DNA of 32,000 bases from Candidatus Nitrospira inopinata (GCF_001458695.1 NZ_LN885086.1:270001-302000), one strand, 5' to 3'; positions 16,950-25,204 are shown, counted from the stretch's first letter. Program-made: numbers and translations. Notes: generated by a model from the letters alone, not told the origin.

Positions 16950-17960
16950 TCATCCGGGGGAGCCCACGTTCCCTACTTCTCCGTGGACTTTTTTCTTTCC
17001 CATGACCGCCAGGCAGAGAAGGCCGATGCCGATCCAAACCAGCTCGCGGAATCGCCGCAACAGCGCGAAGGTCAAACCGGTCACCTCGCCGTAGCCGAAC
17101 GCCTTCAGCAACAGCACGTTTCCTCCGTCCTGGGCGCCCAAACTTCCGGGGATAAAAAAAGACCCCCCTTTGATGAAAACGGCGAGCGCGCCGATGGAAA
17201 ACGCCGACAGAATGGTGGTTGGGCCTCCCAAATAGTGCAGAATGACCAGGACTTCCAATGATTCAGCCATCCAGCCGAAAAAATACACGCCGATCGAGAG
17301 ATAGAACACCCGTTGGTGATGGCGGTAGAAATGCAGAATGGTCCGGTCGATGGAGTGCAAATGCTCTTCCTGCGATTCCAGAAACGCGCTTCGCACTCGC
17401 AACGCCCTGGCGACCCCCAAAATCGACGCAAAGAGGCCGCGGCGCTGCACGAAGACGAAACCCGCGATCGAACAGACCAGCACGCCGACGCTCAGCAACG
17501 CTGCCGTCACCGTATAGCCGGCCGAATCTCCCGCGCCCAGCAGCAGAAATCCGAGCGCGATGCCCGTTAAAATGTAGCAGACCTCGGCGATCGTCATGGT
17601 CGTCTTGGCGATCACCACGGAAGCGGCTCCCTCCGCCACCGGCACGTTGTATTTGTTGAGGAGATAGGCCTTGATCGGCTCGCCGCCCAAATAGGCCGTC
17701 GGAGTCGTCATGTTCACGACTTCCCCCGCCGTTCTGATCGCCAGCAGCCGCCAAAACGGCACCGCTCGCCCCGCAGGCCCCAGCACGACTCTCCAGCCGT
17801 AGGCCTCGACCGCGTACATAATGAAAGAGGGAAGGAGGATGACCGCGAGGACCGAGGGGCCGAGCTTGGCGACGGCCTCGTAAATATTCAGGGGACCGAT
17901 GTGCCAAATGAGAAAACCGAGGACGGCGAGACCGAGCGCCAATAAGAAATAGCGAAGCAC
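16950..17960 (-). CDS. Flippase-like polytopic membrane protein of the lysyl-phosphatidylglycerol-synthase TM-region family (MprF N-terminal-like, UPF0104/TIGR00374-like)
   Basis: 336-aa polytopic protein whose pattern matches that family as I recall it: ...YGWRVVLGP...VPFWRLLAIRTAGEVVNMTTPTAYLGGEPIKAYLLNKYNVPVAEGAASVVIAKTTMTIAE... It starts 13 nt after the stop of the CDP-alcohol transferase fusion and is the last gene of the operon. Confidence 0.7.
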   Translation of the reverse strand: MLRYFLLALGLAVLGFLIWHIGPLNIYEAVAKLGPSVLAVILLPSFIMYAVEAYGWRVVLGPAGRAVPFWRLLAIRTAGEVVNMTTPTAYLGGEPIKAYLLNKYNVPVAEGAASVVIAKTTMTIAEVCYILTGIALGFLLLGAGDSAGYTVTAALLSVGVLVCSIAGFVFVQRRGLFASILGVARALRVRSAFLESQEEHLHSIDRTILHFYRHHQRVFYLSIGVYFFGWMAESLEVLVILHYLGGPTTILSAFSIGALAVFIKGGSFFIPGSLGAQDGGNVLLLKAFGYGEVTGLTFALLRRFRELVWIGIGLLCLAVMGKKKVHGEVGNVGSPG

Positions 17961-17973
17961 GCGGGGCTCACGC

Positions 17974-23490: not shown

Positions 23491-23520
23491 TTGACATCCC
23501 GCCCGCCGCTTTCGCATGAT
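23491..23520 (+). promoter_or_regulatory. Candidate promoter TTGACA-18-CATGAT immediately upstream of, and overlapping, the pepM-fusion start region
   Basis: TTGACA at 23491-23496 and CATGAT at 23515-23520. The in-frame ATG at 23528 (MTNAAKLRAAL...) begins 7 nt after the -10, which is a leaderless-type arrangement. Confidence 0.35.
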
Positions 23521-25204
23521 GGCGCCCATGACCAATGCCGCCAAGCTCCGAGCCGCCCTCAAACGACCCGGCGCCCTGAAAATCGTCGGCGCCCACGACG
23601 CGCTGAGCGCCCGCCTTATCGAACGCGCGGGTTTCGACGGCATTTGGGTCGGCGGGTTCGCCGTGTCGGCCTCGCTGAAGTGCATTCCGGACGCCAGCTT
23701 CATCGATTCGAGCGAGCAGCTCGCCATCGAGCGCAACATCGTCGAGGCGGTCGGCATCCCCGTCATCGCCGATTGCGACACCGGCTATGGAAACGCGCTG
23801 AACGTCATGCGGACCGTCAACGACCGCGAACGGGCCGGCGTCGCCGGCATCTGCATCGAGGACAACGTCTACCCTAAACGATGCAGTTTCTACGCGGGCG
23901 TCCGCCGGGAGCTGATTCCCATCGAGGAGCATTGCAGCAAGATCAAGGCGGCGAAAGCGGCGCAGATGTTCCCCGACTTCGTGGTCATCGCGAGAACGGA
24001 AGCGTTGATCGCGGGGTGGGGACAGGCAGAGGCGCTGAAGCGGGCTGAGGCCTACGCCGAAGCGGGAGCCGACGCGGTGCTCATCCACTCGAAATCGAAA
24101 AAGTTCGACGAGCTGCGGGCCGTCTATCGCGCCTGGTCCGGCCGCGTGCCCCTGGTCGTCGTGCCCACGATCTTCGACCAGACCACGGCGGCGGAGATGG
24201 AGGAGGCGGGCGCCAAAATCATCATCTATGCCAACCAACCGGTGCGGGCGGCCATCCGCGCGATGCGGGACGCGCTCCGTCTCATCAAACAAGACACCCG
24301 CCCCGGAGCCGCCAACGACATCATCGTCCCGCTTCAGGAAGTGTACGATATCGTCGGCGTCCCGCAAATGGAACGGGATGAACGGGAATTCCTGCCCGTG
24401 GGCGGCGAAAAAATCACCGCCATCATCGCCGCCGCGGGGTTCGAAAAGCAGTTGCTGCCGCTGATCGAAGACAAGCCCAAGTGTTTGCTGGACATCAAAG
24501 GCAAGACGATCCTCGACCGCCAGGTGGCGGCGCTCAACGAATGCAACATCAAAGACATCGCGCTCGTGCGCGGGTACAAAAAAGAAGCCATCGCGTTACC
24601 CAATATCCGCTATTACGACAACGACCGGTACGAAACCACGGGCGAATTGTTCTCGCTGTTCTGCGCCGAAAACGAGCTGAGGGGGCGGATCATCGTCCTC
24701 TACGGCGACATCATCTTCGATACGGCCATTCTCGAGAAATTACTGAAGAGCCCCGCCGATATTTCCATCGTGGTGGACTTGGCCTGGTTCGACCAGCATC
24801 AGCGCCACGCTCAGGCCGCCCATCCGAATCCGGACCTCGTCTCCCTCGCCGAACCGCCGGGCAAGAGCTATCTCTCTCGGTTCATCATGTCCGAAGGGGA
24901 GCATCGCGTCGTCAAGATCGGTCGGCACGTGCCCTCGGAGGAGGCGCATGGAGAATTCATCGGCATGGCCATGTTCTCCGAGAAAGGGACGCAAGCGCTT
25001 CGCGACTGCTACCGGTCGGCGCAAGAGTCCGCCCGCTCCATCGGCTTCCACGAAGCCGCCGACCTGACCACGGCCTCGTTCACCGACATGATTCAAGAAC
25101 TGATCGACCGCGGCCACCGGGTCGAGGCCGTTCCGATTTTCAAAGGGTGGACGGAAGTCGATTCGTTCGAGGAGTATCAGAAAGCCTGGGCCAAAATCCG
25201 ATAG
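23516..25204 (+). CDS. pepM: Fusion protein: PEP-mutase-like domain (aa ~1-290) plus LicC-like nucleotidyltransferase domain (aa ~298-562)
   Basis: The N-terminal half is colinear, without gaps, with Mytilus PEP mutase as I recall it (GLSARI/ALSARL, DADTGYGN/DCDTGYGN, DFxxIARxEAxIAGWGxxEALKRAEAYxxAGADAxLxHSK). The catalytic loop reads EDNVYPKRCS instead of EDKxxxxxNS. The C-terminal half resembles LicC (ITAIIAAAGFEKQLLPLIEDKPKCLLDIKGKTIL...GWTEVD). The start may be 23528 rather than 23516. Confidence 0.88.
   Translation: MMAPMTNAAKLRAALKRPGALKIVGAHDALSARLIERAGFDGIWVGGFAVSASLKCIPDASFIDSSEQLAIERNIVEAVGIPVIADCDTGYGNALNVMRTVNDRERAGVAGICIEDNVYPKRCSFYAGVRRELIPIEEHCSKIKAAKAAQMFPDFVVIARTEALIAGWGQAEALKRAEAYAEAGADAVLIHSKSKKFDELRAVYRAWSGRVPLVVVPTIFDQTTAAEMEEAGAKIIIYANQPVRAAIRAMRDALRLIKQDTRPGAANDIIVPLQEVYDIVGVPQMERDEREFLPVGGEKITAIIAAAGFEKQLLPLIEDKPKCLLDIKGKTILDRQVAALNECNIKDIALVRGYKKEAIALPNIRYYDNDRYETTGELFSLFCAENELRGRIIVLYGDIIFDTAILEKLLKSPADISIVVDLAWFDQHQRHAQAAHPNPDLVSLAEPPGKSYLSRFIMSEGEHRVVKIGRHVPSEEAHGEFIGMAMFSEKGTQALRDCYRSAQESARSIGFHEAADLTTASFTDMIQELIDRGHRVEAVPIFKGWTEVDSFEEYQKAWAKIR

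Follow-up and report, generated by a model that had tools for sequence, protein, structure and literature searches.

Our analysis of a 32,000-nucleotide stretch of the Candidatus Nitrospira inopinata genome (GCF_001458695.1, NZ_LN885086.1:270001-302000; called the window below) concerns seven genes that together resemble a phosphonate biosynthesis cluster. Profile searches of each open reading frame (ORF) against Pfam and NCBIfam recovered all seven, with the domains and at the positions given in an earlier note on this DNA: six form an operon (ppdA-ppdB-aept-NT-transferase-flippase, NT standing for nucleotidyltransferase), and the seventh is a pepM-like fusion gene on the opposite strand (Table 1). 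We read them as a chromosomal envelope-tailoring cluster of lineage-II Nitrospira, encoding a pathway in which a 2-aminoethylphosphonate (AEP) head group would be made and placed on a membrane lipid, and we put the probability of this reading at roughly 0.6.

Table 1. Features of the window, with positions counted from its first nucleotide
Feature	Position	Strand	Basis or remark
Six-gene operon ppdA-ppdB-aept-NT-transferase-flippase	22537 to 16950	minus	Pfam + NCBIfam
Sigma-70-type promoter of the operon, TTGAGA-17-TATAAT	22604-22632	minus	11/12 match, 67 nt upstream of ATG 22537
Phosphonopyruvate decarboxylase alpha (PpdA), predicted, 165 aa	22040-22537	minus	TPP_enzyme_N; TIGR03297 130 bits
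Phosphonopyruvate decarboxylase beta (PpdB), predicted, 192 aa, thiamine diphosphate motif GDG-x26-N	21344-21922	minus	TPP_enzyme_C
AEP transaminase (AEPT), predicted, PhnW/AepZ type, 360 aa	20180-21262	minus	Aminotran_5; ORF reaches GTG at 21319
Stand-alone PntC/LicC-type cytidylyltransferase, predicted	19464-20183 (ORF from 20195)	minus	NTP_transferase; ATG overlaps transaminase stop (ATGA)
Degenerate NT-fold domain (aa 1-~240) + CDP-alcohol phosphotransferase membrane domain (aa ~260-470)	17974-19410	minus	CDP-OH_P_transf
NT signature remnant TAILLPSVDLFGDS...VGPLT, aa 17-41	19288-19362	minus	both Gly, Arg and Lys of GxGxR...PK replaced
Catalytic motif DCCDGEVARLTFAESPFGAWLDLFMD, aa 329-354	18349-18426	minus	exact DxxDGxxARx8GxxxDxxxD
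HpnL-like/LPG_synthase_TM flippase-family membrane protein, 336 aa	16950-17960	minus	PF03706, E 8e-36
PepM-like domain (aa 12-257) fused to LicC/PntC-like NT domain (aa ~300-560)	23516-25204	plus	Pfam, NCBIfam
Gating-loop motif EDNVYPKRCS, E115-S124	23858-23887	plus	replaces PepM signature EDK(X)5NS (K to N, N to C)
Small protein, 176 aa, signal-peptide-like N-terminus	22759-23289	plus	no Pfam family
dcw cell-division cluster	563-10358		

A conserved two-strand gene cluster

The ATGA overlap of the transaminase and NT genes and the gaps of 13 and 53 nt that had been described are all present, as are two further gaps, of 24 and 117 nt, that had gone unmentioned. The 117-nt spacer separates ppdA from ppdB (21923-22039); it measures about 100 nt in two other loci (L086 and L087) and is replaced by a 4-nt overlap in Nitrospira moscoviensis and L001. 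The start of ppdA at ATG 22537 agrees with homologues of 165 aa, and the true pepM start may be ATG 23528, because homologues begin MTNAAKL. The promoter that had been placed ahead of the operon is backed by more than its match to the consensus: TTGAGA-17-TATAAT stays unchanged in seven Nitrospira loci, the rest of whose intergenic DNA is poorly conserved, and a footprint kept within divergent DNA strengthens the call beyond what a consensus match alone would allow. Pfam scans of the window's other large ORFs found no phn catabolic genes, in agreement with the earlier note.

The products of the region find their best matches in Nitrospira metagenome-assembled genomes (MAGs), at 66-99% identity, and the cultured Nitrospira moscoviensis NSP M-1 has the same cluster in the same context (CP011801.1 557783-579462). 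Searching with an alignment of the transferase family gave 80 genome loci, most of them from Nitrospirales, and about 70 Nitrospirales loci have all six operon genes intact. Genes for PepM, Ppd, AEPT, PntC, the CDP-alcohol (CDP-OH) transferase and the LPG_synthase_TM (LPG_TM) protein also occur together in at least four gene orders and lineages (Mycetohabitans, Burkholderia cenocepacia, Roseomonas, Entotheonellia and the metagenome locus L107). The intact Nitrospirales operons and the recurrence in other lineages uphold the proposal that these genes form one conserved functional unit, and a comparison of gene neighbourhoods, which had been suggested as a check, found the transferase and flippase genes together with pepM in several independent gene orders.

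Predicted synthesis and transfer of an AEP head group

In the pathway that we propose, the PepM-like domain would convert phosphoenolpyruvate (PEP) to phosphonopyruvate, and the split PpdAB would turn this into phosphonoacetaldehyde, the decarboxylation pulling the reaction forward. The PhnW/AepZ-type transaminase would then yield AEP, from which the stand-alone PntC-type cytidylyltransferase, using cytidine triphosphate (CTP), would make cytidine monophosphate-linked AEP (CMP-AEP). At the cytoplasmic face, the membrane CDP-alcohol phosphotransferase would take the aminoethylphosphonyl group of CMP-AEP and join it to a hydroxyl on a membrane lipid, either diacylglycerol or a hopanoid polyol, its N-terminal NT-fold domain probably serving only to dock the nucleotide donor or the PntC partner, and the HpnL-like protein of the flippase family would carry the product to the outer leaflet.

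The motifs GKCIQGFPG (aa 209 of the transaminase ORF) and GDG-x26-N (Ppd beta) are present as reported, and the transaminase matches TIGR03301 with an E value of 6e-104 and 348 bits, for a cutoff of 361. The stand-alone NT had been called a canonical LicC-like nucleotidyltransferase, and its signature AAGVGKRL...RPK bears this out. Its best match among solved structures is Treponema denticola PntC (Tde1415, 6pd1; E 9e-15), followed by Streptococcus pneumoniae LicC (1jyk); it aligns over its full length with the former and adjoins AEP genes, but shares only low identity with both, and its AEP specificity is predicted. Because its signature is canonical and the AEP-specific PntC is its closest relative, it seems a better candidate for CMP-AEP synthesis than the NT domain fused to PepM.

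The transferase scores 44.3 bits against PF01066 (cutoff 22), and the exact CDP-alcohol phosphatidyltransferase motif attributed to it is there (DCCDGEVARLTFAESPFGAWLDLFMD), with D329, D332, G333, A336, G346, D350 and D354 invariant in an alignment of 26 diverse family members. The proposal that a nucleotidyltransferase is fused to it holds for the fold and for the CDP-OH domain and fails for the NT signature: in the same alignment distant relatives retain AAGxGxRL...PKPL, and the Nitrospirales clade has LLPSVDLF...GPL. Even with the threshold at E=10, Pfam finds no nucleotidyltransferase in the N-terminal domain. An AlphaFold model of the protein (mean predicted local distance difference test, pLDDT, 71.5; helices H266-H467) has as its top Foldseek match the bifunctional enzyme IPCT-DIPPS of Archaeoglobus fulgidus (AF0263, 4mnd; E 4e-15, full length), followed by AF2299 (4o6m), and its N-terminal domain matches nucleotidyltransferases such as RmlA and IPCT. 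Judged from model and alignment, this domain is a real NT fold whose catalytic residues are gone, and it is probably non-catalytic because its signature is degenerate. Among the distant transferases with an intact NT signature, five from Latescibacterota and Gemmatimonadota (L075, L077, L078, L079 and L082) have an MMPL-family transporter gene about 1.5 kb downstream and no phosphonate genes.

IPCT-DIPPS and AF2299, the top matches of the window transferase in sequence as well as in fold, share with it a cytosolic NT-fold domain followed by a six-helix CDP-alcohol phosphotransferase domain, with an identical D/G/A/R catalytic motif. The window protein differs from IPCT-DIPPS in that its NT domain is without GxGxR...K, its donor would be supplied by the separate PntC, and its partners are phosphonate rather than inositol genes. 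This kinship, together with the IPCT/DIPPS label that some of the homologues carry in the JGI annotation, is what could be said for a DIPP-synthase-like reaction in which CMP-AEP and a soluble alcohol (inositol phosphate or glycerol phosphate) would give a soluble phosphonate diester, exported by the membrane protein; a phosphonate diester was also allowed for in the earlier note. However, the partner belongs to a lipid-flippase family and not to solute exporters, related clusters have lipid genes for neighbours (hopanoid genes, Mla, MMPL), the cluster contains no inositol-phosphate synthase or phosphatase, and the transferase scores only 94.6 bits where the NCBIfam equivalog for bifunctional IPCT/DIPPS asks for 580. 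We consider a soluble diester very improbable.

Several observations weigh against a phosphonolipid pathway as a whole. The nearest structural relatives of the transferase, DIPPS and AF2299, use soluble or unknown acceptors and not diacylglycerol. The NT signature of the transferase is reduced to the remnant TAILLPSVDLFGDS...VGPLT, and that of the NT domain fused to PepM is degenerate too (AAGFEKQL, against AAGxGxRL). The PepM-like domain is without the EDK(X)5NS signature of PEP mutases and scores 264.8 bits on the PEP mutase model TIGR02320, below its cutoff of 319.55; it also falls under the NCBIfam equivalog cutoffs for phosphonopyruvate hydrolase and methylisocitrate lyase (PrpB). It has Cys at the position equivalent to Asn122, which we take to separate mutase from phosphonopyruvate hydrolase and to align with the catalytic Cys of the superfamily's lyases. 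In 37 of the 54 Nitrospirales loci with enough flanking sequence, no pepM fusion lies within 10 kb of the operon. Finally, the window cluster and every related cluster are known from genes alone, and the related Burkholderia group has yielded no characterised phosphonolipid (PMC8942020).

The EDN(X)5CS protein and its linkage to the operon

The fusion protein had been described as a PEP-mutase-like domain joined to a LicC-like nucleotidyltransferase, and given the first step of the canonical route to AEP. Its PEP_mutase domain stands (aa 12-257, E 7e-59, with NTP_transf_3 at aa 320-418), and its best match among solved structures is the Streptomyces PEP mutase 5unc (E 4e-82); the canonical family signature does not, its place being taken by EDN(X)5CS. 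The corresponding motif reads EDKRFPKVNS in 5unc and EDKTFPKDTS in phosphonopyruvate hydrolase. Alignment to 5unc and 2dua shows that IPDAS, DCDTGYG, IED, PK, IARTEA and LIHSK are retained in the window protein. These positions include what we take to be the Mg2+ and substrate ligands Asp58, Asp85, Asp87, Glu114, Lys120, Arg159 and His190 (Mytilus PepM numbering), with His instead of the Glu of lyases.

The variant is kept in 118 of 120 close homologues and in every Nitrospira locus that has pepM, as well as in Entotheonellia, and a DNA pattern for it matches at least 120 metagenome stretches. Given this conservation across lineages, the sequences indicate that EDN(X)5CS is not accidental. The proteins bearing it make up a broad family, nearly always with the PntC-like fusion, from Nitrospirales, Entotheonellia, MAGs labelled Deltaproteobacteria and others (L093-L212). 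A change of Ser46 to Gly (WVGGF) was considered as a further family feature and set aside, being restricted to a minor clade; most homologues have WASGF.

The fused NT domain bears on the origin of the protein. Rice et al. (2019; PMC6697681) counted 883 true Ppm (PEP mutases) among 905 PF13714 proteins with a fused domain, and found such a domain in only 22 of 26,231 PF13714 proteins without the motif, versus about 60% of true Ppm. In these proportions, the PntC-like fusion argues that the window protein is a Ppm derivative. The degenerate signature of the fused NT (window 24401-25204) has counterparts in Mycetohabitans (AASRGRGL; L085) and Roseomonas (AASAGDVGD; L213), and in each case the stand-alone PntC is canonical. 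With a canonical PntC present alongside each degenerate fused signature, the catalytic cytidylyltransferase may not be the fused domain.

The pepM fusion lies beside the operon in 17 of the 54 Nitrospirales loci, and on a concatenated tree the pepM-adjacent and pepM-less loci are interleaved, a patchy pattern suggestive of repeated loss or relocation (L003-L072 compared with the window). The description of the locus as a self-contained module is thus upheld for the six-gene operon, which is intact, and not for the adjacent pepM. The pepM-less loci are not decaying remnants, as ppdA and ppdB both have their full length in all of 48 loci, and the transaminase in 49 of 50; nor was a replacement pepM or any other new gene found near these operons, where synteny is otherwise unchanged. 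The Nitrospira-type pepM fusion was beside the operon in every instance looked up. Unlinked variant copies were found in metagenomes: one between clpX and a ribonucleotide reductase gene, whose protein cluster is named Nitrospirales (L158), a cluster of sequences that includes a Nitrospirae MAG protein (L165), and one of 82% identity by RND and TetR genes, with no ppd within 3.7 kb (L151). Such copies can explain the pepM-less operons, and from these sequences the likeliest account is that pepM is often encoded elsewhere in the genomes concerned.

Coupling to Ppd genes, expected of a PEP mutase, was observed: pepM is divergent from ppdAB in the window, and of the 59 metagenome loci of 5 kb or more that bear the variant pepM, among the matches listed, 33 have an adjacent ppd. 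Outside Nitrospirales it heads collinear pepM-ppdA-ppdB-aept-NT operons, one of which (L107) runs on into an NT'::CDP-OH gene and an LPG_synthase_TM gene, and in many of the pepM-ppd-aept operons of the metagenome loci listed it is the sole PepM-like gene.

These data also bear on whether the EDN(X)5CS protein could instead be a hydrolase- or lyase-like enzyme, the operon acting on a 2-oxo acid that is not a phosphonate (for example, in a route from phosphohydroxypyruvate through phosphoethanolamine to CDP-ethanolamine) and furnishing an ordinary phosphodiester head group. The Cys at the discriminating position, the scores under all NCBIfam cutoffs, the NCBI name of the Nitrospira proteins (no more than 'isocitrate lyase/PEP mutase family'), the 37 intact operons without an adjacent pepM, interleaved on the tree with those that have it, and a Ppd beta that scores slightly better on the model for sulfopyruvate decarboxylase than on that for Ppd would all suit such an enzyme, and the Cys-bearing motif resembles what we take to be the K-R-C of superfamily lyases. 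On the other hand, the variant is the only PepM-like gene of collinear operons in several lineages, its aligned active-site positions are retained, it carries the fusion typical of most true Ppm, and the unlinked Nitrospirales copies offer a source of pepM for the operons without it. The transaminase is moreover a near-equivalog of AEP transaminase, and the best solved-structure match of Ppd beta is 9iz3_B, a 'putative phosphonopyruvate decarboxylase beta subunit' (E 8e-26). A non-mutase role thus seems to us quite unlikely, and we retain AEP as the predicted product.

Published phosphonate inventories, that of Rice et al. (2019; PMC6697681) included, require EDK(X)5NS and discard sequences without it, so that clusters with EDN(X)5CS are invisible to them and the Nitrospira PepM has been missed by the main genomic surveys. 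If the variant is a mutase, Nitrospirales would be unrecognised phosphonate producers. Nitrospira comprises the dominant nitrite oxidisers and the complete ammonia oxidisers of soil, freshwater and wastewater treatment, and an AEP cluster conserved in this genus, the cultured N. moscoviensis included, would add a widespread biogenic phosphonate source that has gone uncounted.

Relatives, the lipid acceptor and genomic setting

The transferase and flippase steps had been thought not yet assigned to such a gene set in bacteria. The make-activate-transfer-flip reading is reasonable and not new, both the gene set and the logic of the pathway having been published as a prediction (PMC8942020, PMC5987646). 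Li & Horsman (2022; PMC8942020) describe a 'Burkholderiales_CDP-OH' family as the largest among ppm neighbourhoods, with 318 of 882 (36%) in complete RefSeq genomes, and identify it with the phosphonolipids that Yu et al. (2013) called Group 1. Its core consists of seven genes, for Ppm::PntC, Ppd, AEPT, a 2-oxoglutarate (2OG) oxygenase, a second PntC and two 'phospholipid' proteins (PMC8942020), and a Nostoc genome paper (PMC5987646) depicts the same cluster, with its membrane protein labelled hpnL, and proposes a pathway. In the Mycetohabitans example the two 'phospholipid' genes encode a CDP-alcohol phosphatidyltransferase and an LPG-synthase-domain protein. A literature search on Nitrospira and phosphonate biosynthesis found nothing relevant.

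All of the window proteins have homologues in the Mycetohabitans and B. cenocepacia clusters, at 30-42% identity, and the window shares with clusters of the Burkholderiales_CDP-OH (Group 1) type Ppm::PntC, Ppd, AEPT, a stand-alone PntC, the CDP-alcohol phosphatidyltransferase and the LPG_synthase_TM/HpnL protein, which is six of the seven core genes; the signature of the PepM-fused NT is degenerate in both. The seventh, the 2OG-Fe(II) oxygenase, has no homologue in the window by tblastn with the Mycetohabitans protein, so that AEP is predicted rather than 1-hydroxy-AEP. The window cluster differs further in its split alpha/beta Ppd, its divergent two-strand layout and its Nitrospira host, in its PepM motif (EDN(X)5CS, against EDKQFPKTNS in Mycetohabitans) and in its transferase, which has an NT-fold domain of about 240 aa where the proteins of Burkholderiales and Roseomonas total 200-231 aa. 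It is a divergent variant of the published, predicted cluster type: no oxygenase, split Ppd, variant PepM and an IPCT-DIPPS-like transferase. A search of plasmids with the CDP-OH protein gave weak partial matches only; the Burkholderia transferase is too distant to be found in this way, and the cluster was found through its PepM fusion.

The last gene of the operon had been taken for an MprF-type flippase. The PF03706 membrane domain, common to HpnL (TIGR03476) and the MprF flippase domain, is indeed present; the MprF identity is not sustained, PF03706 being the only domain in its 336 aa, with no C-terminal aminoacyl-phosphatidylglycerol synthase domain. The closest model is HpnL (TIGR03476, E 1e-47), on which the protein scores 162.9 bits, under the cutoff of 195.65, and the window contains no hpn genes. 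It has no significant match by sequence to a solved structure. The function of HpnL itself is stated as unknown (PMC12324291).

Homologues of this protein in related clusters sit in hopanoid loci. In Roseomonas marmotae (L213, p1318-3) PntC-aepX-aepY-HpnL-AEPT-CDP-OH stands between MMPL/VacJ/polyprenyl synthetase genes and ispH-hpnH-hpnG-shc-hpnEDC-glycosyltransferase-hpnA, and on plasmid pBRH01 of Mycetohabitans rhizoxinica (L085 and L091) the module adjoins dxs-MMPL-ispH-hpnH-hpnA-glycosyltransferase-shc-hpnD. Four diverged contigs of Entotheonellia (L074, L088, L089 and L090) hold shc-hpnG-hpnA-Caroten_synth-NT-CDP-OH-HpnL (hpnG-, hpnA- and HpnL-like) as a single operon whose gene starts overlap, bordered by ppdBA, the variant pepM and a gene for squalene synthase. 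At two further loci (L127 and L202) a variant pepM fusion, 71% identical to that of the window, is found near a short CDP-OH transferase, a polyprenyl synthetase, an hpnA-like epimerase and Caroten_synth genes. Marine Nitrospirales possess shc and hpnH, and the making of hopanoids is reported to be widespread among nitrite oxidisers, marine and terrestrial alike (PMC10579370).

Because the flippase-family protein is HpnL-like and the modules of its relatives lie in or beside hopanoid clusters, the acceptor could be a hopanoid polyol rather than diacylglycerol. The relatives point at least as much to hopanoids as to a diacylglycerol or ceramide acceptor, and on chemical grounds a CDP-alcohol-type transferase could reasonably use a primary hydroxyl on the side chain of a bacteriohopanepolyol. 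With the same pathway up to CMP-AEP, an extended hopanoid such as bacteriohopanetetrol would then receive the AEP phosphonate ester, to be handled by the HpnL-like protein, throughout the Group 1 family; the prevalence of the Burkholderia group with no phosphonolipid characterised from it would fit. However, neither the 32-kb window nor the 10 kb around the operon in Nitrospira loci contains hopanoid genes, apart from an hpnA-like gene in L031, and none lies within 17-20 kb of the module in B. cenocepacia or Cupriavidus. The adjacency seen elsewhere could also reflect co-regulated envelope remodelling, and we know of no phosphonate-bearing hopanoid. A hopanoid acceptor is thus possible, though on balance we doubt it. 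Our literature search found no paper linking phosphonolipids with hopanoids in bacteria.

We offer, as a tentative proposal with the odds against it, that the module places AEP on an extended hopanoid and not on a glycerolipid, here and in the Burkholderiales Group 1 clusters, and that in parallel the EDN(X)5CS enzymes are genuine PEP mutases missed by motif-filtered surveys. If true, this would establish phosphonohopanoids as a new lipid class, give HpnL a function and explain why the Burkholderiales clusters have yielded no characterised phosphonolipid. The product of the gene set, the largest ppm neighbourhood family in complete RefSeq genomes, has never been identified (PMC8942020), and its embedding among hopanoid genes in three unrelated lineages provides a concrete hypothesis for that product and for the orphan hpnL, testable in cultured organisms. 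With the AEP-lipid pathway kept as the broader reading, the locus is of value in three respects: its PepM variant has gone unrecognised, in a genus that is environmentally dominant; a strain is in culture for tests of it; and there is the connection with hopanoids.

The genes around the cluster are conserved as well. The window has a BNR protein, YajQ, CstA and Hsp20 on one side and PilZ and an RND pump on the other, in agreement with N. moscoviensis, where the order is CstA, PilZ, Hsp20, the cluster, PilZ, TetR and an RND efflux system. Most Nitrospira loci have between one and three genes for PilZ-domain proteins beside the cluster, on either side (window 25265-25753; L001, L018, L083, L086 and L087), which hints at control of envelope genes linked to cyclic di-GMP (c-di-GMP). 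Between ppdA and pepM, the small protein of 176 aa is conserved across Nitrospira, with relatives 50-71% identical, and N. moscoviensis and others have two such signal-peptide-like ORFs in tandem between the divergent operons. An ORF at 22782-23519, considered as the missing oxygenase, is spurious: it matches no Pfam family, lies in the wrong frame and overlaps the pepM start, and the conserved gene there is that of the small protein. The G+C content of the window is about 62%, falling to 0.515 in 10001-11000 (against about 0.62 elsewhere), between mraW and a 417-aa ORF of no Pfam family.

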